From: Proteiniborus sp.
GTDB lineage: Bacteria > Bacillota > Clostridia > Tissierellales > Proteiniboraceae
Direction of reading: 5' to 3'
DNA length: 64,000 nt
Assembly (NCBI RefSeq): GCF_040308045.1
Contig: NZ_JAWRHZ010000060.1
Location: 41,197-105,196 of the forward strand
Shown: one piece after another, positions 6,400 through 64,000 of the stretch
Numbering within the stretch: position 1 is the first letter of the stretch
How the letters are laid out: every line of letters starts with the position of its first letter
The notes under the pieces: generated by a model
Databases searched by the model: none
The model's input: only the letters and a program-made list of their open reading frames with translations
Told to the model about the DNA's origin: nothing
Made by a program: the position numbers and the translations under genes

Positions 6400-7155
6400 A
6401 TGAAGAAGGTGTACTTTATAGGTGCAGGACCTGGAGATCCTGACCTGATAACTATAAAAGGTAAAAAAATAATAGATGAATCTGATGTAATCATATATGC
6501 TGGTTCCCTTGTAAATGAACAGGTGTTACAAGGTAGAAAGGAAGAAAGTGTAGTATATAACAGTGCATCCATGACATTGGAAGAAGTCATAGAAGTGATG
6601 AATAAAAGTATTAAAGAAGGTAAAAAAGTGGCAAGAGTTCACACTGGAGATCCTAGTATATATGGAGCTATAAGAGAGCAAATAGATGCTCTTGAAAAAC
6701 TGGGAATAGATAGTGAAGTAATACCTGGTGTCAGTTCTTTTGTAGCCTCAGCAGCAGCTATCAAAAAAGAATTTACACTTCCCAATGTATCACAGACAGT
6801 AATATGTACTAGGCTAGAAGGAAGAACTAAAGTACCTGAAAGGGAAAGTCTTGAGAGCTTAGCATCACATAAAGCTTCTATGGCAATATTTCTTTCGGTT
6901 AATATGATAGACCAGGTTGCAGATAGATTAAAAGAACATTATAGTGAATCCACACCAATTGCAGTAATTCAAAAGGCTAGCTGGGAGGATCAAAAGATAG
7001 TCATAGGAAATCTTAGCAATATAGCTGAAAAAGTGAAGGCAGAGGGAATAAATAAGACTGCACAGATTTTAGTTGGTGGTTTTTTAGGCGATGAATATGA
7101 ACTATCTAAGTTATATGATAAGAACTTTAGTCACGGATATAGGAGTGCCAAATGA
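6400..7155 (+). CDS. cbiF: Cobalt-precorrin-4 C11-methyltransferase
   Basis: 251 aa. VYFIGAGPGDPDLIT and HTGDPSIYGA motifs. Confidence 0.9.
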   Translation: MKKVYFIGAGPGDPDLITIKGKKIIDESDVIIYAGSLVNEQVLQGRKEESVVYNSASMTLEEVIEVMNKSIKEGKKVARVHTGDPSIYGAIREQIDALEKLGIDSEVIPGVSSFVASAAAIKKEFTLPNVSQTVICTRLEGRTKVPERESLESLASHKASMAIFLSVNMIDQVADRLKEHYSESTPIAVIQKASWEDQKIVIGNLSNIAEKVKAEGINKTAQILVGGFLGDEYELSKLYDKNFSHGYRSAK

Positions 7156-8165
7156 GTTGGGCAGTAGTTACATTGACTAAAGATGGAACACAGCAAGGGA
7201 AGAGAATAAAGAATCTATTAGATGATATTAGATTAGATGTATATACTCAGGAAAAATGGGCTGATGAAGAAACCTTAGTAATAAATAAAAAGCTTGATGA
7301 ATTCATAGGAAGTATATTTTACAAATATGATATTATACTTTTTATTATGTCTACAGGAATAGTAGTCAGAAGTATAGCTAAGTACATTAAAAGTAAAACT
7401 ACTGATCCTGGAATATTAGTAATGGATGAAAGAGGACAGTTTATAATAAGCCTGCTTTCAGGTCATTTAGGAGGAGCTAATAAAGCTGCTAAGCTATTGG
7501 CGGATAAAATAGGAGGTCAGCTTGTAATAACTACTGCATCGGATGTAAAGGGGCTAATAGCAGTGGATACACTAGCTGAAGAATTAAAATGCTGTATATC
7601 CAATATGGTTGGTGCTAAAAACGTTACAGCACTTATAGTAAATGATGAGATAGTTCAAATAAAATCTGATATTAATATTGAAACGAAGCTTCCTAACAAC
7701 ATAGTAACAGAAGGAGAAGCAAAAGGCATAATATTTATTACAAATAGAATAATGAATTTAGACAATAAATATGAGGTACAGCTAATACCTAAGAACATAA
7801 TAATTGGCGTAGGCTGTAAATCAGGGCTCAGTAGTGAAGCTATAATAAATGCAGTAGAAGAAGCATTAGTTTCTTTAAATATTGACAATAGAAGTATCAA
7901 GCATTTTGCAACAGTAGATGTGAAGAAGAATGAAGCAGGAATATTTGAAGCTGCAAAACACTATAAAACCATTGTTAAGATAGTTGATAGAAAAGAAATA
8001 AAGACTGTAGAAAATGAATTTCAGTGTTCAGAGTTTGTGAGAAAAACAATAGGAGTAGGTGCAGTTTGTGAGCCATGTGCAGCACTTACTGCCATAAAGG
8101 GACATTTTCTCATGAGAAAACAAGCATATAATGGAATAACCTTATCTATATGGGAGGAAGTATAG
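7152..8165 (+). CDS. cbiG: Cobalt-precorrin-5A hydrolase
   Basis: 337 aa with CbiG-like N-terminal, middle and C-terminal parts. 4-nt overlap with cbiF. Confidence 0.85.
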   Translation: MSWAVVTLTKDGTQQGKRIKNLLDDIRLDVYTQEKWADEETLVINKKLDEFIGSIFYKYDIILFIMSTGIVVRSIAKYIKSKTTDPGILVMDERGQFIISLLSGHLGGANKAAKLLADKIGGQLVITTASDVKGLIAVDTLAEELKCCISNMVGAKNVTALIVNDEIVQIKSDINIETKLPNNIVTEGEAKGIIFITNRIMNLDNKYEVQLIPKNIIIGVGCKSGLSSEAIINAVEEALVSLNIDNRSIKHFATVDVKKNEAGIFEAAKHYKTIVKIVDRKEIKTVENEFQCSEFVRKTIGVGAVCEPCAALTAIKGHFLMRKQAYNGITLSIWEEV

Positions 8166-53514: not shown

Positions 53515-53580
53515 AAATAAAAAATTTACAAATAAATTAAAAGCAATTATCTTGGATATACTAAATCTGAGGTGATTGCT

Positions 53581-54516
53581 TTGTTTAATTTAAAGAAAAA
53601 TACAGCCCTAAGGGTTTTAATAATTTTAGCTATAACCATACTTGCAACAACTGCATGTACTAAAAATCCGGAAAAACCTAATATAGAAAAAAAAGAAGAA
53701 AAAGTTCCGGAAAAACTAAAAGCTATGCAAGGTAAAAACGAAGATATAATTAAAGAAATAGAAAAAATTGTTGAGGAAATGAAAAAGCCAGAAGAACCTA
53801 AGAAACCAGAAGAAAAAGCCCAGCAACAGCAGCAAGGACAAGGTGATGGCGGTGGAGGCAGCCAAGGTGGCGGAGGCGGAGGTAGCCAGGGCGGTGGTGG
53901 TTCGGATTCAGAGGGAGGAAGCGGACAAGATCAGCAGAAAACTTCTGAAAAGACTGGTGGAGAGAAGAAGCCTGAAACAAAACAAGAAAAAATTGATACT
54001 ATGTGGAAAGCAGTTAAAAAAACCTCTGAGGATTTACATACATCTTGGGGGGATTATGAAATAATAGCTATAGAAAAGGGAGTTAAGAAACAGGAATTAT
54101 CAAAATTTGAGGATACAATAAATAATTTAACAGTAGCAGTCGAAGATAAAAATATTATTAATTCATTATTTTATTCAAACGAAGTAACATATAACATGGC
54201 TCCCTTCTTCGATGCATATAAGGATAATCGTGAAGGCGAATTGATGAGGATAAAATACTTTACAAGGCAAGCTCATTTACACGGAGGAACAGGTGATTGG
54301 GATAAAAGCGAAGAGAGCATAAGACAAGCAGAAGAGGCAATGAATATTGCTAGAGCAAGGATTAAGCTTAATAAAGAAGATCAACAGCTTATGGAGAAAT
54401 TAAATATATCATTAACGAATATGAAAACATCTATTCCCATGAAAAATGTAGAACTTATAAAGATAAAGAGAGATATTGTGTTAAAGAATGTGGATGAAAT
54501 AAGAGATAAACTATAA
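53581..54516 (+). CDS. Lipoprotein with a Pro/Glu/Lys then Gln/Gly/Ser low-complexity linker
   Basis: TTG 53581 sits 5 nt after GAGGTGA. Lipobox LATTAC. Linker QQQQGQGDGGGGSQGGGGGGSQGGGGSDSEGGSGQDQQ followed by a helical C-terminal domain. Confidence 0.6.
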   Translation: MFNLKKNTALRVLIILAITILATTACTKNPEKPNIEKKEEKVPEKLKAMQGKNEDIIKEIEKIVEEMKKPEEPKKPEEKAQQQQQGQGDGGGGSQGGGGGGSQGGGGSDSEGGSGQDQQKTSEKTGGEKKPETKQEKIDTMWKAVKKTSEDLHTSWGDYEIIAIEKGVKKQELSKFEDTINNLTVAVEDKNIINSLFYSNEVTYNMAPFFDAYKDNREGELMRIKYFTRQAHLHGGTGDWDKSEESIRQAEEAMNIARARIKLNKEDQQLMEKLNISLTNMKTSIPMKNVELIKIKRDIVLKNVDEIRDKL

Positions 54517-54563: not shown

Positions 54564-55547
54564 GTGGCTATTGTGTTTTTAAAGAATAAAAAAAGATTAT
54601 TAAGCTTTATATTAATCATCTTATTATTTACATTAATGATTTCAGGCTGTTCTTCTAAAGGTATTTATGACTCAAAAACCAGTGAATCACCAGCTCAATC
54701 AGCACCTGCTGAAGCTAAGTATACAAGTGATATGGCAGATGCAGTTAGAGAGGAATCGGGCTTCAATTATAGTCAAGTTGCAGGCGAAGCTGAACAAAGT
54801 ACAGAAAATACAAATGCTGAGACCAATATAGGCAGGAAAATAATAAGATCGGCAAATGTAGAACTAGAAACAAAGGAATTTGACAAAACCACAAATATAA
54901 TTACAGAGAAGACAAACTTTCTCGGAGGCTATATAGAAAGCTCCAGCATATCAGGTGGACGACCAGTAAATAAAGAAGATTTTAGAAATAGAGTAGCTTC
55001 ATTTAGACTTAGAATTCCTGAAAAAAGCTTTGAACAGCTACTACTTGATTTTAGCGACATAGGAAATGTAATAAAGATAGAACGCGGTGGAGAGGATATT
55101 ACAAGTCAGTATTTTGACACTGAAGCAAGACTTAAATCTCTATCAATCCAAGAAGAAAGACTACTAGATATATTAAGAAAAGCAGATAAAATAGAGGATA
55201 TCATAAATCTAGAAAGAGAACTTTCTAATGTTAGATATCAAATAGAAAGCTATACAGGTACTTTAAGAAAATGGGATAATTTAGTTAGCTTTTCAACTAT
55301 AGATTTAATAATATACGAGGTTAGAGAAATACAAGCTCCAGAACCTGTTACACTTGGAGATAGAATAGTAGACGGATTCAGTAAATCCATAAAAGAAATT
55401 ATTAACCTAGGAAAAGAGCTTATAGTTGCAATAGCTGTATTACTTCCTGTTTTATTTATTCTAGCAATCATAGGATTAGTAGCTTATTACATTTTTAAGA
55501 AAGTTGTAAAAAGAAGAGTTAAGAAAATAGATAAAGATGAAGATTAA
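54564..55547 (+). CDS. DUF4349-domain protein (lipoprotein N-terminus, C-terminal TM anchor)
   Basis: Lipobox MISGC. KIIRSANVELETKEF...GGYIESS, FRLRIP, DITSQYFDTEARLKSL...LERELSNVRYQIES pattern of DUF4349 (recalled). C-terminal TM segment. Confidence 0.7.
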   Translation: MAIVFLKNKKRLLSFILIILLFTLMISGCSSKGIYDSKTSESPAQSAPAEAKYTSDMADAVREESGFNYSQVAGEAEQSTENTNAETNIGRKIIRSANVELETKEFDKTTNIITEKTNFLGGYIESSSISGGRPVNKEDFRNRVASFRLRIPEKSFEQLLLDFSDIGNVIKIERGGEDITSQYFDTEARLKSLSIQEERLLDILRKADKIEDIINLERELSNVRYQIESYTGTLRKWDNLVSFSTIDLIIYEVREIQAPEPVTLGDRIVDGFSKSIKEIINLGKELIVAIAVLLPVLFILAIIGLVAYYIFKKVVKRRVKKIDKDED

Positions 55548-55621
55548 AAAGTACTATATTTTTTCTTCTGATGAGCTATAATGTATATGTAGAACATAAC
55601 AATATTCTAGAGGTGAATAAA

Positions 55622-56458
55622 ATGGATAATGAAGCATTATTGAAATACTATATATACAATGGTGAAATAGTACCTATATCAAAGGATGATGGATTTAAGG
55701 AAGCAACTTCACCATTGATATATGAAGTGATTAGAATTATTGATGGTGTTCCAGTATTTCTAGAGGGACATATAGAGAGAATGAGAAAGTCAGCTGAACT
55801 AATAGGTAAGACTATAAAAAAATCTGATGAAGAGATTACAGAGGAAATACATAAGCTAATAGATGCTAATAAAGAGCATAACATGAATATAAAGCTTTTA
55901 TGTACTAACATAGATAGCCCAAATCAGACATTTATGATTTATTATAATAAAAGCAGCTATCCAGAAAAAGAAGTATATGCAAAGGGAATCCATACTATTC
56001 TATTCGACTCTGAAAGGGAAAACCCCAATGCAAAAATAGTTAATGCTGATTTGAGACAGAGAATTAATGATGAAATTAAAGCACAAAATGCCTATGAAGC
56101 TCTTTTAGTAAATAGAAATGGATACATTACAGAAGGTAGCCGCTCAAATATGTTTTTTGTAAAGGGTGACAAGGTCTATACAGCACCAGCAGGAGATGTG
56201 CTCTTAGGAATAACAAGAAATGAAATTATGAACGTATGTAGGGAGAGGGACATAGAAGTAATAGAGGAAGAAGTTCACAAGAATTCTTTAAAGGGCCTTG
56301 ATGGAGCTTTTATGACAGGTACATCAGTCAATGCTCTTCCTATAGCGACTATAGATGATATCAAGCTAGACTCGGTAAACAATCATATTATCAAAAGAAT
56401 AGCAGAAGGCTATTTACAAAAAATGCAGGAATATATAAAAATAAATATAAAAAAATAA
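55622..56458 (+). CDS. Class IV (fold type IV) aminotransferase / aminodeoxychorismate-lyase-like
   Basis: ATG 55622 sits 6 nt after AGAGGTGA. EGHIERM, TEGSRSNMFFV and GITR motifs. Confidence 0.8.
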   Translation: MDNEALLKYYIYNGEIVPISKDDGFKEATSPLIYEVIRIIDGVPVFLEGHIERMRKSAELIGKTIKKSDEEITEEIHKLIDANKEHNMNIKLLCTNIDSPNQTFMIYYNKSSYPEKEVYAKGIHTILFDSERENPNAKIVNADLRQRINDEIKAQNAYEALLVNRNGYITEGSRSNMFFVKGDKVYTAPAGDVLLGITRNEIMNVCRERDIEVIEEEVHKNSLKGLDGAFMTGTSVNALPIATIDDIKLDSVNNHIIKRIAEGYLQKMQEYIKINIKK

Positions 56459-56479: not shown

Positions 56480-56508
56480 TTGCAATATGTAAAAAATGGT
56501 GGTAATAT
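56480..56508 (+). promoter_or_regulatory. Putative promoter with an extended -10
   Basis: TTGCAA, a 17-nt spacer ending in TGg, then TAATAT. About 55 nt upstream of the 28-codon ORF. Confidence 0.45.
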
Positions 56509-56564
56509 AAAAAGGTAGCCTAATTTAGTAGGCTTTACCAATAATGAAAAGGAGGCCGTGAAAG

Positions 56565-56651
56565 ATGTTAATGAGAAATTTGAACAGAACTAACAGAATT
56601 GAAAACAGAAATAATAACGGCCTGCGAACAGGTAGAAGAGTTAATTTATAG
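56565..56651 (+). CDS. 28-codon Asn/Arg-rich micro-ORF
   Basis: GGAGG lies 9 nt before the ATG. MLMRNLNRTNRIENRNNNGLRTGRRVNL, followed by a terminator. Whether it is translated is uncertain. Confidence 0.35.
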   Translation: MLMRNLNRTNRIENRNNNGLRTGRRVNL

Positions 56652-56686
56652 TTATTTTTTGATGATAAAATAATTATGATGTTTCT

Positions 56687-56715
56687 AGTCGCAGGTGTAT
56701 AGTCTGCGACTTTTT
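56687..56715 (+). terminator. Intrinsic terminator
   Basis: AGTCGCAG-N9-CTGCGACT followed by a T-run. Confidence 0.75.
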
Positions 56716-56753
56716 ATATTTTTATGCACTTTTATTGTGTTGAAAAATAATAT

Positions 56754-56782
56754 AGTCGTGGGCTAGATGCTCGCGACTTTTT
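56754..56782 (+). terminator. Second terminator-like hairpin
   Basis: AGTCGTG-N11-CGCGACT (one G-U pair) followed by TTTTT. The stem sequence is related to that of the previous hairpin. Confidence 0.5.
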
Positions 56783-56838
56783 GTTTGAGCCAATACATAA
56801 GCAACTTGCACGAAATCAGAGAATTCAGCAATATGCTT
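56781..56838 (-). repeat. Partial copy (part 2, inverted) of the intergenic repeat element
   Basis: The reverse complement AAGCATATTGCTGAATTCTCTGATTTCGTGCAAGTTGCTTATGTATTGGCTCAAACAA aligns to 25255-25314 with a 2-nt indel. Confidence 0.5.
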
Positions 56839-56862
56839 GTAGTTTTGTATTAAAAAGCCGCA

Positions 56863-56893
56863 GAGTAACTATCTGCGGCTTTTATTATGCCTG
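56863..56893 (+). terminator. Third intrinsic terminator
   Basis: AAAAGCCGCAG-N9-CTGCGGCTTTT. Confidence 0.7.
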
Positions 56894-57026
56894 TATTTCA
56901 AAAACATACTATAAATTCAACAAAAAACCAGAATGGACATTTTTAATTGCTCAATCGTTATATATATGAAAGCACGTAAGCGGAGGTAGATTTTATGTAT
57001 TAGAAATATTTAAGGAGGTGATTTGC

Positions 57027-57149
57027 ATGAATGACGTCTTACAGCTGGTAACTTCATTTTATTTACTCGAGAAAAGTGCCAAGAAAAAGGATAAGAAAAG
57101 ACATAGGGACTTTAAGTTAAGCTTAGATCCTGAGAAAAAAGTACATTAG
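57027..57149 (+). CDS. Micro-ORF P1 (40 aa), Lys-rich; divergent member of the array
   Basis: AAGGAGGTG lies 6 nt before the ATG. MNDVLQLVTSFYLLEKSAKKKDKKRHRDFKLSLDPEKKVH. Confidence 0.5.
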   Translation: MNDVLQLVTSFYLLEKSAKKKDKKRHRDFKLSLDPEKKVH

Positions 57150-57178
57150 TATAACATATAGCATTGGAGGTGATAGAT

Positions 57179-57304
57179 ATGTTTATACAAAATCCGATAG
57201 AAGCAAATATTTTGCTATATGATTTAGATAAAGATTCTCGTTTAGAAGAATTTTTAAGGCTAGAAAGTAAAAAGACTAAAAAGAAAAGCGATAGGATGTG
57301 GTAG
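57179..57304 (+). CDS. Micro-ORF P2 (41 aa)
   Basis: GGAGGTG lies 6 nt before the ATG. MFIQNPIEANILLYDLDKDSRLEEFLRLESKKTKKKSDRMW. Confidence 0.55.
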   Translation: MFIQNPIEANILLYDLDKDSRLEEFLRLESKKTKKKSDRMW

Positions 57305-57305
57305 T

Positions 57306-57413
57306 ATGTTTACAAGCTTAATAATGCAATATGATTATCATAAAGATTTTCGTTTAGAAGAATTTTTGAAGCTAGAAAGCAAAAAGACTAAAAAGAAAAA
57401 ATATATGAAATAG
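57306..57413 (+). CDS. Micro-ORF P3 (35 aa)
   Basis: The ATG is 1 nt after the P2 stop, suggesting coupling. MFTSLIMQYDYHKDFRLEEFLKLESKKTKKKKYMK. A 49-nt block is nearly identical to P2. Confidence 0.5.
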   Translation: MFTSLIMQYDYHKDFRLEEFLKLESKKTKKKKYMK

Positions 57414-57492
57414 TATTATGTTCAGTCTTTCTAAGCTAAATCGGAAAAAATAGATTTTCCAAAACACATTACAGGATAGGCAGGTGATATGT

Positions 57493-57618
57493 ATGAATTT
57501 ATTAGGGGTAACTGTTACAGAATTTGAACTAAAAAAATATGAAACAAAAAAAGATGTTGGTTTAAATGAGTATTTAAGACTAGAGTTCAAAAAAAATAAA
57601 AATATTTGGAGGAGATAA
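57493..57618 (+). CDS. Micro-ORF P4 (41 aa)
   Basis: AGGTGA lies 5 nt before the ATG. MNLLGVTVTEFELKKYETKKDVGLNEYLRLEFKKNKNIWRR. Confidence 0.5.
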   Translation: MNLLGVTVTEFELKKYETKKDVGLNEYLRLEFKKNKNIWRR

Positions 57619-57622
57619 TGTG

Positions 57623-57715
57623 ATGTTTGATTTTAATATTATGAACGATTTTGAAGTTAGATTTTATAGGGGGTTAAATGAATACTATAAACTTGAATTT
57701 GAAAACAATACCTAG
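57623..57715 (+). CDS. Micro-ORF P5 (30 aa)
   Basis: GGAGGAG lies 8 nt before the ATG; the SD overlaps the end of P4. MFDFNIMNDFEVRFYRGLNEYYKLEFENNT. Confidence 0.5.
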   Translation: MFDFNIMNDFEVRFYRGLNEYYKLEFENNT

Positions 57716-57742
57716 CTACGCTATCAGATAAATCAAACATGG

Positions 57743-57772
57743 GGCAGATGTTAATAAGTGTTAATATCTGCC
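57743..57772 (+). promoter_or_regulatory. Stem-loop between the micro-ORF array and the GNAT gene
   Basis: GGCAGAT-N16-ATCTGCC with no T-run; the loop contains a direct repeat GTTAAT..GTTAAT. Confidence 0.35.
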
Positions 57773-57803
57773 TGCATATCAAACCTAACAAGGGGGTTAT
57801 AAA

Positions 57804-60800
57804 ATGGGAGATATTAAAATAGTAGAATACGATAAAATGTATGCTAAATCATTAGCGGATATGTGGAATATGAGTATGGACAGTTGGGGTGGTTCGGATA
57901 GCATATACACTGAAGAAAGTGTAATTGAAGAAAATGAAAATACAGGAAATCTAAACATATATGTAGCTTTAGATGGAGATGAGGCTGTTGGATATTGCAG
58001 CTTTTCAGAATATAGGCAGGATGAGGGAGCCTTATACATTCCTACATTAAATGTTCGTCCAGATTACCATGGGAAAAAGGTAGGAAAAGCATTAGTACTT
58101 CAGGCTGTTAAAAGAACTATAGAGTTAGGGTGGCCTAGGATTGACTTATACACTTGGCCAGGCAATACAAAAGCAGTTCCGTTATATAAGAAGTGTGGCT
58201 TCTTCTGGGAGAAAAGGGATGATTCTACGCATTTAATGAATTTCATACCTACAGTATTGCAAACAGATGCTGTGAAGGAATTCTTTGAAGTGTTTGACTG
58301 GTACCAGGATTGTAAGAGAAATATTGAAATAAAGCCAGATGGAAATGAAGAAGATAAGTTTTCAAATTATGAGTACATATGGGAAAAGGACGAAAAGTAT
58401 CTAAGAATGGGTTTTGACAGAAAAGGAAGGGGATTGCGTTTAATCGAGACTGATGATTATCTAATAAGTGCAGATATTCAAGAGCAAGAGCTAGTTTTCG
58501 GAAGGGAATATAATATAAGCTACAACATTGTAAATAAAACTGGTAAAAAATTAGATATAACTATTAATGGAGAGGATGATAAAAATATTAAGTTTTCCTT
58601 TAAAACAGTCTCGTCAGTAGAAGATAAGCAAACCATTACTGCTAGCTTTTTTGTTGATGCAATAGAAGAGGAGCAAAGTCATTGGAGAACCCATCCTTGT
58701 GTGCTAGCTAATATATCAATTAATGGTAAAAATGCTTTGTTTAAGATAGGAATTAAGCCTAAGTTTCCAGCAAAGCTTTCCTTATCAGCACCAAATACAC
58801 ATAAGTTGAAGAATACAAGTTCAGAATTTTATATTGATATTGAAAACAGCTTTAAGGAAAAGGCTGTATTCCAGTTTGTATTACCTGAATCAGATAATAT
58901 AATAATTCAAAATAGGAGCTTTAGCATAACATTAGCTTCACAAGAAAAATCCTCTATAATGGTGCCATACATTTTAAATAAATCATTTTCATATGAGGCT
59001 ACGATAAGTATTAAGGCAAATCTTTCAAATAGCTCTGTGGAATTTAAGAGAAAGATATCCTTACAATTTAGTGGATATAATAGTAAATTTGGTGGAGAGT
59101 CAGATGAATATTGGAGCGTGTTTAATGGAAGCTATTCATTACATTTAACTAAGTTCGATAATGACTTAATATTAAGAAGAATACCTGGAATCAGTCATGA
59201 AGTGGTAGCATTCTATCCTAAGATTGGATTGCCTTTTTCTCTTGAATTCTCTAAGGAAAGGCCTCACACAGTAGAAAGTTATTGTGAAGGTGATTACATT
59301 GCTTTAAAAGCTTTTTATAGCTCAAGAGACTTTAAACATATACAGATTGTATCTATATCAAAGCTATATGCTAATGGTTTGGTAGAACACAGCTATGAGA
59401 TACAGAACACTAATGATGTAGATGCTGATGAGGAAGTATGGTTTAGTCAGAGCTACTATTATGATCTTATAGATGCTATCATTCCTTACGAAGATAAGTA
59501 CATAAAATTAATTGGAGAAGATAGCAGTGGCTTAGATTTTTGGGATAGCAATAAATTTACTGAGAACTGGATTTACTCCAGCGAGGAAAATGCAACTATC
59601 AGCCTATGCTGGCCAGTGAAGGACAAAATAAAATTCAACAACTGGTATTTGTCAATTGACAAAAATCTAGGCAAGATTCCTGCTCATTCAAGTATATGTA
59701 CAGAACCATGCTATATGGCAATAGATACCTTTAAGGATTGGAAGGAATTAAGAAGATTTGCAATGAAGGATGGCTGTCAAGATAATAACAAGCTGAACAC
59801 CACTGATAAGCTTGAAATAAATATTAACAATGGAAATCCATTTGTAGGTGACAGATTTGATGTAAGGATAAAAGACTATAGAAAATCTTATTTTGATGGA
59901 AAAATGAAACTAAGTTCAATTAATGATTCCATTAAAGAGCTTGAGAAAAAATTCAGTATTATTGATCAAGCTAATGAGACTGTATTTTCTGTTACTGGAA
60001 ATAACACTCCTAAAATTGATACATTAGCATTGAATATTGATTTTGATTCAGTATTGCTACAGAAGAAGTCGGCAGTATTTAAGATTGACGACAATGCAGT
60101 GATTAAGAAAAATAGAAATATGAGAAACGGAATGGAAACTTTATCACTTGATAATGGAGAAATGATAATTAAAACTTCTCCGCAGTTTTCAGGTACTATA
60201 TATTCTCTACTATACAACTCTAAGGAATGGCTCGATACTTCTTTTCCTGAACCTAGACCTAAATCATGGTGGAATCCATGGTTTGGTGGAATAGTAACAT
60301 TGCCAGAAGAAATGACTGCGAGGTCATTTGCTGAAGAAGATAGAGAAGCGGATTTCGTAGAACTAAACGATAATGTAGGAAATACTTGGAATGGAATAGT
60401 CATAAGAACAAATATAAAGAAAAATGAAAAATTCAAGGGACTTAAGATAGCACAGTACTATTTAATGCTTCCAGGAGTACCAGTACTATGTCAAACTACA
60501 GAAATTACTCAAGAGACAGGTTATTATTTTAATTCTAAGAGCTTCATGACAGATATGTATCTTAAGCTAGATGAAGAGTATAAAAACAGCATGGTAACCA
60601 TAAAGACTCTCTCTGGACAATTAGCAACATATAAAGCAGTAAAAGACTATGATATTAAAACTGATGGAGCTTTGATTTTCAGTAGTGTAAATAGGGAGGA
60701 TAAGCTGATGGTTTATAATAATGGAAACATTCCTATGTATGGCTTTACCGATAACGAAGCAATAGGGGCCTGTATAATTAATAAAATGGATATTAAGAAT

Positions 60801-60896
60801 AATGAAAAGGTCTTCTTACCAGCAAGCTTTTTAATATTTACTAATGAAGTAATGGATGATGACATGTTGAAATGCTTAAGAAATATAAGATTTTAG
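57804..60896 (+). CDS. 1030-aa protein: N-terminal GNAT acetyltransferase domain fused to a roughly 870-aa region of unknown function
   Basis: AAGGGGG lies 7 nt before the ATG. GNAT core GYCSF...LNVRPDYHGKKVGKALVLQAVKRTIELGW...NTKAVPLYKKCGFFWE. The rest is beta-rich and I recognise no motif in it. Confidence 0.8.
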   Translation: MGDIKIVEYDKMYAKSLADMWNMSMDSWGGSDSIYTEESVIEENENTGNLNIYVALDGDEAVGYCSFSEYRQDEGALYIPTLNVRPDYHGKKVGKALVLQAVKRTIELGWPRIDLYTWPGNTKAVPLYKKCGFFWEKRDDSTHLMNFIPTVLQTDAVKEFFEVFDWYQDCKRNIEIKPDGNEEDKFSNYEYIWEKDEKYLRMGFDRKGRGLRLIETDDYLISADIQEQELVFGREYNISYNIVNKTGKKLDITINGEDDKNIKFSFKTVSSVEDKQTITASFFVDAIEEEQSHWRTHPCVLANISINGKNALFKIGIKPKFPAKLSLSAPNTHKLKNTSSEFYIDIENSFKEKAVFQFVLPESDNIIIQNRSFSITLASQEKSSIMVPYILNKSFSYEATISIKANLSNSSVEFKRKISLQFSGYNSKFGGESDEYWSVFNGSYSLHLTKFDNDLILRRIPGISHEVVAFYPKIGLPFSLEFSKERPHTVESYCEGDYIALKAFYSSRDFKHIQIVSISKLYANGLVEHSYEIQNTNDVDADEEVWFSQSYYYDLIDAIIPYEDKYIKLIGEDSSGLDFWDSNKFTENWIYSSEENATISLCWPVKDKIKFNNWYLSIDKNLGKIPAHSSICTEPCYMAIDTFKDWKELRRFAMKDGCQDNNKLNTTDKLEININNGNPFVGDRFDVRIKDYRKSYFDGKMKLSSINDSIKELEKKFSIIDQANETVFSVTGNNTPKIDTLALNIDFDSVLLQKKSAVFKIDDNAVIKKNRNMRNGMETLSLDNGEMIIKTSPQFSGTIYSLLYNSKEWLDTSFPEPRPKSWWNPWFGGIVTLPEEMTARSFAEEDREADFVELNDNVGNTWNGIVIRTNIKKNEKFKGLKIAQYYLMLPGVPVLCQTTEITQETGYYFNSKSFMTDMYLKLDEEYKNSMVTIKTLSGQLATYKAVKDYDIKTDGALIFSSVNREDKLMVYNNGNIPMYGFTDNEAIGACIINKMDIKNNEKVFLPASFLIFTNEVMDDDMLKCLRNIRF

Positions 60897-60908
60897 GAGA
60901 ATAGTCAT

Positions 60909-61304
60909 ATGAAAATAATAGATGCCCATTTGCACTTTTCTAGAATTGAAAGCTTTGAGAAAACAGCTAAGGATATTTCCTTTGTAGATTATTCTGCATT
61001 AGGACTGAATAAGGAGTTTGAGAATAATAATATTATAGCAGGGATTGGAATGGGAGTAACAGAGGAAATGAAAGGAGGATTCCCTGACGTTTCCTCCTCT
61101 AATCCCATGAGCCTCGACTTAGAACATAAGCTACCAAGTAAATTAGCATATTGTGTTGGTATTAATCCAGTTAAACTGGTAGGAGAATCAAAAGAAAAAG
61201 AGCTCTTACAAATTGAAGAAGCATTAAAGAATAATTCCATTGGCATAAAGATATATGCAGGGTATTATCCATTTTATGTATTTAGCAAGCTAAAGAATAA
61301 GTAA
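60909..61304 (+). pseudogene. Truncated amidohydrolase-family gene (N-terminal third to half only)
   Basis: MKIIDAHLHF... metal-binding HxH start and ...GIKIYAGYYPFY, then a stop after 131 codons. 61305-61412 is non-coding. Full-length relatives, as I recall them, are about twice this size. Confidence 0.5.
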
Positions 61305-61412
61305 ATCTAATATAGCTATTAATTATACTAAAGCTATTTTGATTATTAGTAATCAAAGTGATAAACTAGTAATATATGTTATTTAGCAACAATATTTTGA
61401 GGGGGTGCCACA

Positions 61413-62843
61413 ATGCAGGTTAGTATGTCAAGGTATTTGCAAGAGAAGAAGCAGTTACTAAAGGAACTAGTTTCTGAATTATCCAAGTCTTTTAAATATG
61501 TATCTGTTTTAGGAGCAGATACATGTGGTAAGACATATTCTGTTTACAAGACAGGAATTAGCTTAAACGATTCAGAATGGACTGAGAGAGGATTTGTAGT
61601 GAGAGTTCATAATGGATACAATTACTCAGAATATTCCTTTAATAGACTATCAGAAGAAGGATTAGGTTCACTAATCGAAAACATAAAGAATAAGGTTAAT
61701 AATGATATTAACAGACTGAAAGAATCAGCAGTGAAGATAGGTACTTATCCAGTTATTGAAGAGGATAAGATTGCAGAAAAGGTTTTCAAAGAAGTAGAGA
61801 TACTTCCTGAGGAAGTAAGTGCTGAGGAAAAAATTAAGACAATGACTAGAATAAAGGATGAGGCCTTTACTTATTCAGATTTGCTAGTGGATTTTAGAAT
61901 AACCTATGGAGACTGTCATGTATCAAAAATCTTTATTTCTCAAAATAAAGATTTAGAGCAATCCTACATATGGAGTCAGGGAAGTCTTTCAGCAGTAGTT
62001 AGAAAAGATGATAATACCAAGTTTTACTATGATAGTGTAGCGGGACTAAAGGGTGTTGAACTACTTGACGAGCTTCAGCATAAAGTAAAAGAAGTAATAT
62101 CGTATGCAGAGAAACTTCTAGATGCAAAGAAAATCATCCCAGGAGAATATGATGTCATATGCTCACCAGGAATAGCAGGCTTAATAGCACATGAGGCTTT
62201 TGGACATGGTGTTGAAATGGATATGTTCGTTAAAAATCGAGCAAAGGCTGCTGAATTTATTAATAAAGAAGTGGCATCAGAGTTAGTAATAATGCATGAT
62301 GGAGCAGCTGCAGCAGAAAATGTATCCTCATACTTTTTTGATGATGAAGGCGTTCTTGGAACCGATACAATAATAATAGATAAAGGAATTCTCAAAACTG
62401 GAATATCAGATTTACTTTCAGCACTAAGGCTAGGTACAAAGCCTACTGGCAACGGTAAAAGAGAATCCTTTGAAAGGAAAGCCTATGCAAGAATGACTAA
62501 TACATTCTTCGAAGGTGGTAAAGATAAACTTGAGGATATGATTGCTTCAGTAAAAGAAGGCTACCTTCTTGACGTTATGTTAAGTGGTATGGAAGACCCA
62601 AAAAACTGGGGAATTCAGTGTATGATTCTAATAGCAAAGGAAATAAAAAACGGAGTGCTAACAGGAAATATTATGTCTCCTGTTATTATGACTGGCTATG
62701 TTCCAGATGTTCTAAAATCCATCTCTATGGTATCAGAGGAAGTGGAGATTTTTGGTTCAGGAGCTTGTGGAAAGGGCTACAAGGAGTGGGTAAAAGCAGC
62801 TGATGGAGGTCCATATATTAAAGCAAGAGTGAGGTTGGGATAA
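61413..62843 (+). CDS. tldD: TldD-family metallopeptidase
   Basis: 476 aa. HEAFGHGVEMD (HExxxH) and a C-terminal GxC...GG region. GAGGGGGTG lies 5 nt before the ATG. Confidence 0.85.
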   Translation: MQVSMSRYLQEKKQLLKELVSELSKSFKYVSVLGADTCGKTYSVYKTGISLNDSEWTERGFVVRVHNGYNYSEYSFNRLSEEGLGSLIENIKNKVNNDINRLKESAVKIGTYPVIEEDKIAEKVFKEVEILPEEVSAEEKIKTMTRIKDEAFTYSDLLVDFRITYGDCHVSKIFISQNKDLEQSYIWSQGSLSAVVRKDDNTKFYYDSVAGLKGVELLDELQHKVKEVISYAEKLLDAKKIIPGEYDVICSPGIAGLIAHEAFGHGVEMDMFVKNRAKAAEFINKEVASELVIMHDGAAAAENVSSYFFDDEGVLGTDTIIIDKGILKTGISDLLSALRLGTKPTGNGKRESFERKAYARMTNTFFEGGKDKLEDMIASVKEGYLLDVMLSGMEDPKNWGIQCMILIAKEIKNGVLTGNIMSPVIMTGYVPDVLKSISMVSEEVEIFGSGACGKGYKEWVKAADGGPYIKARVRLG

Positions 62844-64000
62844 TGATAGATAAAATAAAAGAAATATTATCAAATATTGAGGGTCTAGACGGATGGAAGC
62901 TCAATGAGAAGAAAGTAGAATCAAAGGAATTATTCTTTATAAAAAAAGAGCTTGATATGAATAGAGCTAAGGATGTACACCATATAAGCATCACTGTTTA
63001 TAAGGATTTCGAGGAAGACAGCAAAAAATATAGAGGCTCATCTACAACTGCAATACATCCTACTATGAATGAAGAAGAAATAAAAAATGCGATAACTAAT
63101 GCCCTATATGCTGCAGGCTTTGTTAAAAATGAATACTATCCATTAGTGGAGCCTAAGGTAGAGATTCAACCGATAATGGAAAATAGATTTTTCAAGGAGT
63201 CTATGTCAAACTGGATGCCTAAGCTTACAGACGAAATCTTTATTGCTGATAAATATGATAATGGGTGGATTAATTCAGCTGAGCTTTTCCTAGACAAGGT
63301 AAATATAAGAATACTTAACTCTGAGGGAGTAGATGCATCATACGAAACCTACAGGGGAGAGCTTGAGTTTATTACAAATTGGAAGGAAGATGAAGGCGAA
63401 GAAGTAGAGCTTTACCAGGATATTGTTTTTTCTGATTATGATGACAAATTCATAACCGAATCTGTAAATGAAATGCTTAAAATATGTAGAGATAAAGCAA
63501 TTGCAAAACCTACACCTATGATAAAAGATACACCTATAATATTATCTGGAGAGCCAGTAAAGGAATTCTTTTACTACTACTATGACCAAGCAGCAGCACG
63601 CTCGATCTATGAACAGACTTCAACTGCTAAGATTGATAAAAACATACAGGGTGATGATGTAAAGGGAGACAAAGTTAACATTGAACTTGACCCTTATCTA
63701 GACAACTCTACAGCTTCAGCACCTTATGATGAAGATGGTCTAAGGCTAGCTAGAGTTTCATTATACGAGGATGGTGTATTAAAAAGATATTGGGGCAATA
63801 CAAGATTTTCTCATTATTTAGGTATCAATCCGACAGGTACCATAAGAAATGTATTAGTAGAAGGTGGCAGTAAGACCTTAGAAGAAATCAAAGAAGGTCC
63901 TTATCTAGAGCTTAAAGTATTTTCTGATTTTCAGATGGATACATTGACAGGTGATTTTGCTGGTGAAATAAGATTAGGCTGGTACAATGACGGAGAGAAA
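62843..64000 (+). CDS. pmbA: PmbA/TldE-family protein (partner of TldD), 3' end beyond the window
   Basis: The ATG overlaps the tldD TAA by 1 nt. The frame is open for 386 codons to the window end. No HExxxH. ...GPYLELKVFSDFQMDTLTGDFAGEIRLGW is typical of the PmbA_TldD fold. Not in the track because it runs off the end. Confidence 0.75.
   Translation, partial: MIDKIKEILSNIEGLDGWKLNEKKVESKELFFIKKELDMNRAKDVHHISITVYKDFEEDSKKYRGSSTTAIHPTMNEEEIKNAITNALYAAGFVKNEYYPLVEPKVEIQPIMENRFFKESMSNWMPKLTDEIFIADKYDNGWINSAELFLDKVNIRILNSEGVDASYETYRGELEFITNWKEDEGEEVELYQDIVFSDYDDKFITESVNEMLKICRDKAIAKPTPMIKDTPIILSGEPVKEFFYYYYDQAAARSIYEQTSTAKIDKNIQGDDVKGDKVNIELDPYLDNSTASAPYDEDGLRLARVSLYEDGVLKRYWGNTRFSHYLGINPTGTIRNVLVEGGSKTLEEIKEGPYLELKVFSDFQMDTLTGDFAGEIRLGWYNDGEK

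Follow-up and report, generated by a model that had tools for sequence, protein, structure and literature searches.

Clusters for peptides that are made on the ribosome and modified after translation (RiPPs) can pair multi-copy precursors with GNAT tailoring enzymes, as with MdnD in microviridin and GodH, which acts by N-acetylation, in goadsporin, and bottromycin joins an N-terminal core and a follower peptide with an aminopeptidase and an amidohydrolase. Leaderless multi-peptide bacteriocins, among them aureocin A70, garvicin KS and enterocin L50, are another described kind of small-peptide system. Here we analyse a locus of Proteiniborus sp., at positions 56480-64000 of a stretch of 64,000 nucleotides (nt) that we call the window, in which all genes are co-oriented on the forward strand. 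A leader region with three terminators is followed by five micro-open reading frames (micro-ORFs), a gene for a GNAT fusion protein of 1030 amino acids (aa), a shortened amidohydrolase gene and a tldD-pmbA pair (Table 1). We rate the locus, with high confidence in the operon structure, as a small-peptide operon with tailoring enzymes under leader-peptide attenuation, and we infer that 56480-61304 is co-transcribed as one conditionally expressed operon.

Several features are those of RiPP clusters. Tandem paralogous peptide genes stand immediately upstream of enzyme genes in seven lineages, with a hairpin behind the precursor genes, and each peptide is bipartite, one part being variable and the other conserved. 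The operon includes an acetyltransferase, to which sister genera add a peptidase and an exporter and most related loci an amidohydrolase. Unlike in RiPP clusters, however, no LanB/C/M, YcaO, radical SAM, ATP-grasp or RiPP recognition element (RRE, PqqD-like) was detected in this operon, the conserved part sits at the C-terminal end of the peptide, and the enzyme family is distributed far more widely than the peptides. With leaderless bacteriocins the locus shares several cationic peptides of 30-45 aa encoded in tandem and having no signal or leader sequence, but these peptides are highly charged (acidic and basic) instead of hydrophobic or rich in Trp/Gly, genes for an ABC exporter or for immunity are missing from the window, and the peptides come linked to a cytoplasmic GNAT fusion. 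Neither a leaderless bacteriocin nor a GNAT toxin-antitoxin system agrees with the size, composition and gene content, and both candidates were rejected. A PqqA-like Glu/Tyr cross-link at the GLE..Y motif was likewise set aside because there is no radical SAM or PqqD gene in the operon; the sole radical SAM gene belongs to Dethiothermospora, where it is 3 kb downstream.

A family of small peptide genes

A single-protein search of genome contigs returned mostly Fictibacillus loci and was supplemented by an alignment-based metagenome scan and exact-protein look-ups. The peptide family was mapped with a hidden Markov model (HMM) run over all small ORFs of the 114 fetched loci. Nineteen clusters of the family came from a profile search of 5.8 billion proteins and two further ones from a HMMER search of 1.84 billion representatives, about 21 in all. 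Seven lineages in at least four genera (Proteiniborus, Brassicibacter, Sporosalibacterium and Dethiothermospora) carry it: the Proteiniborus sp. of the window with an 88%-identical relative (L001), Proteiniborus sp. DW1 (L019/L020), a metagenome-assembled genome (MAG; L021/L103), Brassicibacter mesophilus (L107-109), another MAG (L110), Sporosalibacterium faouarense (L111) and Dethiothermospora halolimnae (L022/L105/L106). The number of peptide genes per locus ranges from one or two up to seven. In all seven lineages the order is the same, namely a promoter-like site, a leader ORF with its own Shine-Dalgarno (SD) sequence, three terminators, the peptide array, a hairpin without a U-tail and the enzyme genes, and every occurrence of the family on a long enough contig lies upstream of, and co-oriented with, a homologue of the GNAT fusion. 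These GNAT proteins are 46-65% identical between the peptide-bearing genera.

The peptides are 30-41 aa long, with a variable N-terminal stretch of 15-20 residues and a conserved C-terminal part that carries the motif [KR]D-x-G-L-x-E-[YF]-L-[KR]-[LH]-E-[YF]-[KR][KR]. Most lineages close the array with an ORF of a distinct subtype, whose last residues are NNT, NDT, NKT, HYT or HNT (NNP in L021). In the window, pep2 to pep5 share [RG]-L-[EN]-E-[FY]-[LY]-[RK]-L-E-[SF]. The first member, pep1, is divergent and was not detected by the family HMM; it has orthologues in L001 and L021, as does pep2, and is similar to the peptide that opens the Brassicibacter array (MTDLL..KRDFGFEEYSKLELRR). A recent tandem duplication of pep2 gave rise to pep3, as seen from a 98-nt direct repeat of 84% identity, and pep3 is absent from L001. 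The fourth peptide is annotated as a hypothetical protein in Proteiniborus sp. (P0126).

Four of the five micro-ORFs, pep3 being the exception, have a GGAGG-type SD sequence 6-9 nt upstream. The stop region of pep4 (TGG AGG AGA TAA) contains the SD of pep5, and in Dethiothermospora the sequence ..TAT AGG AGG TAA likewise supplies an SD to each following copy. Across genera the motif is kept through synonymous codon changes (Leu as TTA, CTA, CTG or TTG; Glu as GAA or GAG) and through Arg/Lys swaps. Differences between orthologues fall 35, 32 and 57 times on codon positions 1, 2 and 3, with 47 synonymous and 56 non-synonymous codons, and one Brassicibacter peptide shows six synonymous and no non-synonymous differences over its whole length. 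The SD sites, the motif kept through synonymous changes and the third-position excess bear out the initial annotation in its view of the micro-ORFs as genuine genes, and we predict with high confidence that they are real, conserved peptide genes of one family. The same annotation had described the peptides as Lys-rich. Their KKTKKK tails do exist, but they are specific to Proteiniborus and not a property of the family, in which no Lys is invariant and the motif position alternates between K and R.

Between the array and the GNAT gene lies a stable hairpin without a U-tail. It is conserved in L001, and analogous hairpins follow the arrays of Dethiothermospora (L022, 7888-7915), Brassicibacter (L107, 9258-9286) and Sporosalibacterium (L111, 5789-5819).

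A leader region with three terminators

Like the leader attenuators of the trp and his operons and of antibiotic-inducible erm, cat and ABC-F genes of Bacillota, the region upstream of the array has an SD-led short ORF followed by an intrinsic terminator, and a mutually exclusive antiterminator helix, whose pairing covaries, overlaps the ORF. It differs from all of these in having three tandem terminators, a leader motif of its own ([NK][KR]IE[NY], which is conserved) and a switch segment that also pairs with the leader SD, and in being without an Rfam match; Rfam scans of the window's leader and array region, and of seven related loci, returned nothing relevant.

The promoter-like site fits the consensus at 8 of 12 positions and for that reason was not listed by the promoter scan. 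Its sequence is conserved in L001, L019 and L021, and promoter-like sites occupy the same relative position in Dethiothermospora (L022, TTGCCA-17-TGcTATAAT), in Sporosalibacterium and in L113, which is one of three close relatives without an array (L112, L113 and L114, 46-48% identical). At the 5' end of the predicted leader transcript there is a stem-loop (AGCCTAATTTAGTAGGCT), conserved in L019 and partly in L001, that may stabilise the transcript at its 5' end; the terminator scan lists it, as terminator-like, for the minus strand alone.

The switch segment lies inside the leader ORF and has two possible partners, the SD-proximal GGCCGT or the 5' arm of terminator 1. The helix that would sequester the SD is GGCCGU:ACGGCC in the window, GGCUGUA:UACAGCC in L110, GGUCGUAU:AUGCGGCC in L111 and GGUCGC:GCGACC in L022. 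The antiterminator helix, between the switch segment and the 5' arm of terminator 1, is CCUGCGA:UCGCAGG in the window, ACAGCCUG:CAGGCUGU in L110 and ACCUAGAA:UUCUAGGU in L022, and is weaker in L111, with six of eight pairs. Both alternative helices thus covary between genera, and the leader of the window folds far better than shuffled sequence (z = -6.7). Leader regions contain 3-4 terminators where 0.1-0.2 would be expected by chance. The triple terminator between leader ORF and array is present in L022 (one terminator listed by the scan and two read from the sequence), L107, L110 and L111, and was seen in every peptide-bearing lineage examined.

In L113, where the upstream synteny is kept and the array is missing, a leader ORF and tandem terminators stand 48 nt before the GNAT fusion, which places the array inside the regulated unit. 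The three terminators had initially been read as isolating the locus from the aminotransferase gene upstream. Because leader and terminators are conserved upstream of GNAT-fusion operons, L113 included, we conclude instead that they form a conserved attenuator that belongs to the GNAT operon. In unrelated lineages (Fictibacillus, L029, L032, L036 and L041), too, the GNAT-fusion gene comes after a leader ORF and one to three tandem terminators, and this arrangement may represent a widespread, undescribed class of attenuator of GNAT-fusion genes.

Some further observations concern the leaders. In L029, L032/L034, L036, L041 and L003/L008/L010, all of which lack the array, an SD-led short ORF lies within 400 nt upstream of the start of the GNAT fusion. 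These leader ORFs of unrelated lineages often begin M-x-M-[IRK] (MDMIKF.., MKMIRL.., MKMKRT.., MIMMINL..), and behind them stand between one and three tandem terminators whose arms are related (CTGCGGC, CTACAG or CCTGTGG, then a U-run). A 14-nt sequence that encodes IENR, ATTGAAAACAGAAA, is identical in the leaders of the window (within 56586-56611) and of L022 (within 6805-6830), with diverged surroundings. The leader motif [KR]IE[NY] also resembles K[LH]E[YF] of the array peptides, a likeness that could reflect paralogy or a common nascent-chain motif. The spacers of the leader are prone to indels: about 51 nt of the stretch between terminators 2 and 3 of the window (56779-56852) are missing from L001, which in turn has a 152-nt insertion between terminator 3 and pep1 (about 7165-7316).

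The GNAT fusion, its partners and its neighbours

The 1030-aa protein is 100% identical to a database GNAT family N-acetyltransferase of Proteiniborus sp. (P0001). Pfam recognises GNAT alone (PF00583, residues 19-133, 61.9 bits against a cut-off of 20.7). In the acetyl-CoA-binding segment Y88, G90 and G94 are invariant among 40 homologues and K91/K92 nearly so, and the weak best matches of the domain include the protein N-alpha-acetyltransferases NAA30, NAA50 and RimI. There are 1135 homologues of about 1030 aa, and all those with an organism name are from Bacillota. The fusions of peptide-bearing loci group together in a neighbour-joining tree, in one clade, alongside the array-less L113 and L114.

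Residues 166-1030 have no sequence match in Pfam, NCBIfam or PDB. The AlphaFold2 (AF2) model of the whole protein (predicted local distance difference test score, pLDDT, 87.4) consists of the GNAT domain and then an almost wholly beta region. Foldseek with the whole chain gave non-specific matches to multi-beta-sandwich proteins (LacZ, complement C3; TM-score, TM, below 0.2), and a single-domain model was used instead. The model of aa 762-1030 (pLDDT 95.6) matches the mutarotases GalM and YeaD (E about 1e-8, TM 0.58-0.66), the mutarotase-like domains of GH36 and GH38 enzymes and YidC P1 (TM 0.55-0.66 overall), so that on the predicted structure the C-terminal domain is a galactose-mutarotase-like beta-supersandwich fold. 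A GH29 alpha-L-fucosidase gene lies directly upstream of the peptide-less fusion in L112 (1766-3031) and a GH4 gene near that of L114 (13029-14336). These neighbours are weakly in line with the mutarotase-like fold; neighbour clustering of GNAT-fusion loci showed no systematic enrichment of glycoside hydrolases. In three related metagenomic loci (L051, L065 and L080) the fusion is preceded, at 10-78 nt, by ABC-F-type ATPase genes. We considered them as a hint of antibiotic resistance and discarded the idea, as the apparent cluster is a mix of generic ABC ATPases and ABC-F genes are directly upstream in these three loci only.

One robust partner emerged from a census of 102 GNAT-fusion loci, 97 of which entered the neighbour clustering: a full-length amidohydrolase gene is directly downstream on the same strand in 64 of the 97, the gap having a median of 28 nt. 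The pair of GNAT fusion and amidohydrolase is a widespread module of two genes. The intact orthologue in L001 has 285 aa and matches PF04909 (Amidohydro_2; E = 4e-26, 92.8 bits), whereas the window copy falls below every Pfam cut-off, with 16.5 bits to TatD_DNase, and no intact TIM barrel is recognised in it. The gene had been taken for truncated. It is indeed shortened, yet not at its 3' end: an in-frame internal deletion has removed about 154 of 285 codons and left both termini in place, and with high confidence this copy is predicted to be decayed and inactivated. In L021 the amidohydrolase gene is gone entirely.

The genes that follow the array differ between genera. In Brassicibacter they are an M29 aminopeptidase, an MFS_3 transporter, the GNAT fusion, the amidohydrolase, a GNAT gene and TldD/PmbA; in Sporosalibacterium M29, the GNAT fusion and the amidohydrolase; and in MAG L110 a small GNAT, M29 and the GNAT fusion. 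M29 thus lies between array and fusion in three lineages, with the copies of L107 and L110 being 72% identical, and in all other fetched loci it was seen once, on the opposite strand. This position, together with that of the MFS exporter in Brassicibacter, fits a peptide-processing locus and is the strongest support for such a function. It also means that the evidence for processing points to an aminopeptidase rather than to TldD/PmbA.

The window pair has the hallmarks of Escherichia coli TldD/TldE (PmbA), family M103. The two genes are of the heterodimer type with overlapping stop and start (TAATG at 62843), PF19289 is found on both paralogous proteins and HExxxH in TldD only, with scores far below the NCBIfam equivalog cut-offs; PmbA, which runs past the end of the window, has a full length of 433-436 aa in L001 and L019. 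TldD/E is present in about 60% of bacterial genomes as a housekeeping protease usually encoded outside biosynthetic clusters (PMC10885120); it tolerates many sequences, and it shortens unstructured N-termini up to a modification that stops it (PMC5810440, PMC10885120). The initial annotation had made the pair a dedicated component of the locus, and here the gene-neighbourhood comparison went largely against it: TldD/PmbA adjoins the module only in Proteiniborus and Brassicibacter, and no such pair lies in the fetched flanks of 7-8 kb in Sporosalibacterium, Dethiothermospora or any of the other GNAT-fusion loci (about 100), so that there is no conserved linkage with either fusion or array. A gap of 94-243 nt precedes tldD in every locus (94 nt behind an inserted GNAT gene in L019), L019 and L107 have variable GNAT genes inserted between module and pair, and in front of tldD the window shows a promoter-like site. 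We are highly confident that this synteny is lineage-restricted. It is the pair's sole tie to the peptides, and TldD/PmbA is probably, as in E. coli, a housekeeping operon, here an adjacent bystander forming a separate transcription unit.

The remaining neighbours can be described briefly. A lipoprotein-like ORF with a long low-complexity Gly/Gln/Ser tract (GGGGSQGGGGGGSQGGGGSDSEGGSG), a DUF4349 gene and a class IV aminotransferase gene form a syntenic trio upstream of the operon in Proteiniborus loci, and the latter two are also upstream of it in Brassicibacter and Sporosalibacterium. Downstream of the Dethiothermospora module (L022, 11271-19087; also L105/L106) there are at least nine small same-strand GNAT genes, with a radical SAM gene and an amidohydrolase gene, and L113 (6053-13002) has DJ-1/PfpI, a beta-lactamase-family gene, several GNAT genes and a methyltransferase gene. 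These downstream runs of GNAT genes look like 'GNAT islands'.

All five micro-ORFs, the 1030-aa ORF, the amidohydrolase-like ORF, tldD, pmbA and the three hairpins were found where they had first been placed, and the spacings given for them are right, with 88 nt from the array to the 1030-aa ORF, 12 nt before the amidohydrolase ORF and 108 nt before tldD.

Table 1. Features of the locus and of its upstream flank, in positions of the window.
Feature	Position	Strand	Remarks
Lipoprotein-like ORF	53572-54516		low-complexity tract
DUF4349 protein gene	54564-55547		upstream of the operon
Class IV aminotransferase gene	55571-56458		upstream of the operon
Promoter-like site	56480-56508	+	TTGCAA, 17 nt, TGgTAATAT (extended -10); read from sequence
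Stem-loop	56517-56534		5' end of predicted leader transcript
Leader SD	56550-56555		AGGAGG
SD-proximal GGCCGT	56553-56558		partner of switch segment
Leader ORF	56565-56651	+	28 aa, MLMRNLNRTNRIENRNNNGLRTGRRVNL
Switch segment, ACGGCC	56617-56622		inside leader ORF
Switch segment, CCTGCGA	56621-56627		inside leader ORF
Terminator 1	56687-56711	+	terminator scan
Terminator 2	56754-56778	+	terminator scan
Terminator 3	56853-56883	+	perfect 12-bp hairpin, then U-run
pep1	57027-57149	+	40 aa, MNDVLQLVTSFYLLEKSAKKKDKKRHRDFKLSLDPEKKVH; SD AAGGAGG
pep2	57179-57304	+	41 aa, ..DKDSRLEEFLRLESKKTKKKSDRMW; SD GGAGG; HMM E = 2e-6
pep3	57306-57413	+	35 aa; HMM E = 1e-6; weak AGGA about 9 nt upstream
pep4	57493-57618	+	41 aa, ..KKDVGLNEYLRLEFKKNKNIWRR; HMM E = 7e-8
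pep5	57623-57715	+	30 aa, ..YRGLNEYYKLEFENNT; terminal subtype ending -N-T
Hairpin without U-tail	57743-57772	+	GGCAGAT..ATCTGCC; read from sequence
GNAT fusion gene	57804-60896	+	1030 aa; GNAT at about aa 1-165, Ig-like beta-sandwiches, predicted galactose-mutarotase-like aa 762-1030
Amidohydrolase remnant	60909-61304	+	131 aa; from alignment to L001 orthologue
Promoter-like site	about 61348-61376		TTGATT-17-TGaTAAACT; read from sequence
tldD	61413-62843	+	476 aa; PF19289 E = 2e-43; HExxxH as HEAFGH
pmbA/tldE	62843-64000	+	at least 385 aa; PF19289 E = 5e-20

A proposed maturation of the peptides and its alternatives

We suggest that the promoter would drive a short translated leader ORF whose RNA could take either of two pairings, one of which would sequester the leader SD while the other would act as antiterminator. 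The three terminators would be read through only when a ribosome pauses on the ..[KR]IE[NY].. of the leader, and both this control and the enzyme-peptide chemistry that follows are what we infer. Read-through would lead to transcription of five paralogous, translationally coupled small-peptide genes, with the post-array stem-loop probably raising peptide mRNA above enzyme mRNA, and then of the cytoplasmic GNAT/beta-sandwich/mutarotase-like protein and its usual amidohydrolase partner, apparently inactivated in the window. The peptides would be clade-specific cargo of the operon, matured by its enzymes. Their variable 15-20 N-terminal residues would be trimmed, in Brassicibacter, Sporosalibacterium and MAG L110 by M29, whereas Proteiniborus, having lost M29, would depend on peptidases of the cell. 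The large protein would bind the conserved C-terminal GL-x-EYLKLEY(K/R)2 module, and its GNAT domain would N-acetylate this module; the Brassicibacter MFS protein is a candidate exporter in the operon. A link between peptides and enzymes is plausible. That the peptides are matured by the co-operonic enzymes in this way, through N-terminal trimming, binding and N-acetylation by the GNAT fusion, is a tentative reading to which we give a probability of about 0.4.

A number of points weigh against maturation by the operon's enzymes. The peptide family is missing from about 100 other GNAT-fusion loci, L112, L113 and L114 included; since most GNAT-fusion/amidohydrolase modules have no peptides, these cannot be the general substrate of the module, and its basal substrate must be something else. 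A modifying enzyme of a RiPP pathway should co-occur with precursors across its family, and here one clade only has them. The carbohydrate-type mutarotase fold of the C-terminal domain suggests a carbohydrate ligand. All peptide-bearing lineages have the class IV aminotransferase gene in local synteny, and therefore the linkage of peptides and enzymes could be a matter of inheritance and not of selection. Proteiniborus DW1 has retained the enzymes along with only one or two peptides, and the Pfam and NCBIfam searches found neither a RiPP-class enzyme nor an RRE in the operon. Lastly, the absence of an invariant family Lys argues against acetylation of a conserved lysine, and the proposal in the initial annotation that Lys-rich peptides are acetylated on lysine loses its footing, the more so as the KKTKKK tails are confined to Proteiniborus.

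The widespread occurrence of the module without peptides favours the main rival reading, in which GNAT fusion and amidohydrolase would be a small-molecule module, induced through an attenuator that works by ribosome pausing, for the acetylation or hydrolysis of an amino sugar, glycoside or xenobiotic, with the peptides as co-regulated accessory proteins that the GNAT domain does not modify (regulators, ribosome- or enzyme-binding factors or secreted peptides of one clade). The mutarotase-like fold speaks for this too, as do the leader ORFs and tandem terminators before GNAT fusions in Fictibacillus, L029, L032, L036 and L041 and the extra small GNAT genes downstream in many loci, at least nine of them in Dethiothermospora. 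We nevertheless find this account doubtful, though possible, since it leaves unexplained both the constant place of the array inside the operon and the aminopeptidase and exporter genes between array and enzyme in three lineages; moreover, likeness of fold is not evidence of substrate, and YidC P1 has the same fold. Quite unlikely, in our judgement, is the model first put forward for the locus, one dedicated system in which Lys-rich peptides are acetylated on Lys, or bound, by the fusion and are then trimmed by TldD/PmbA. Its peptide-fusion half is in line with the linkage in seven lineages, and for the whole one can point to the co-orientation of all genes, to an adjacency kept across Proteiniborus species and in Brassicibacter, to N-terminal trimming up to a modification (PMC5810440, PMC10885120), which suits the variable N-terminal stretch, and to the lack of M29 in Proteiniborus, for which TldD/PmbA could substitute, perhaps opportunistically. 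The TldD/PmbA half is not supported, however: the pair is not beside the module in Sporosalibacterium, Dethiothermospora and about 100 other loci, it is set off by variable GNAT genes (L019, L107), gaps of 94-243 nt and, in the window, a promoter-like site, it has a housekeeping role and is as a rule not encoded in biosynthetic clusters (PMC10885120), and its supposed Lys-rich substrates have Proteiniborus-only tails and no invariant Lys.

The remaining alternatives deny the peptides a function of their own. We think it very unlikely that the micro-ORFs are cis-regulatory upstream ORFs, encoding arrest or relay peptides that tune downstream translation or mRNA stability and have no function as free peptides. 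They do lie in the 5' region of the operon after the attenuator, their conserved motif is C-terminal like that of arrest peptides, the leader's ..KIE[YN].. resembles their ..K[LH]E[YF].. and their stop codons overlap the following SD. But the arrays hold 2-7 copies and have been tandemly amplified in recent times, which points to dosage; the last ORF is set apart from its downstream neighbour by 88-250 nt and a hairpin; entire genes (M29, MFS, small GNAT) can intervene between array and fusion; and one Brassicibacter peptide has six synonymous and no non-synonymous differences from end to end. That they are untranslated ORFs arisen by chance in an AT-rich repeat is extremely improbable. GC content is indeed low here (about 27-30%), and the window and L001 also agree well in their intergenic DNA (83%), yet GGAGG-type SDs on most copies, the third-position excess, a motif kept across genera with synonymous changes though the GNAT proteins have diverged to 46-65% identity, and ORFs predicted by independent gene callers in several assemblies all argue for translated genes.

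Maturation by the operon's enzymes can be extended to a more specific proposal, which we consider rather unlikely as a whole: an undescribed ribosomal-peptide pathway in Proteiniborus and members of the Thermohalobacteraceae (Tissierellales), in which M29, or TldD/PmbA as a 'pencil sharpener' where M29 is absent, would trim the peptides and stop at the GL-x-EYLKLEY(K/R)2 module, a recruited GNAT/mutarotase-like enzyme would bind this module and cap it by acetylation, and the triple-terminator leader-peptide attenuator would be the switch. The likeness of the leader's arrest motif to the product peptides hints at feedback control.

The peptide family, which gave no match in sequence searches of Pfam, NCBIfam and PDB, the domains of the fusion beyond GNAT and the triple-terminator leader belong to no family described in Pfam, NCBIfam, Rfam, PDB or the searched literature, where neither the peptides nor the GNAT fusion were found. 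If the peptides are matured by co-operonic enzymes, they would constitute a new family of peptide natural products or signals. This would provide the first functional handle on a family of more than 1,100 proteins of about 1030 aa, in which about 870 residues have no Pfam model, and whose amidohydrolase partner is equally uncharacterised. Independently of how the peptides mature, the triple-terminator attenuator with its covarying helices is a clean, testable regulatory element, and its inducing signal would reveal what the GNAT-fusion module responds to across the Bacillota.

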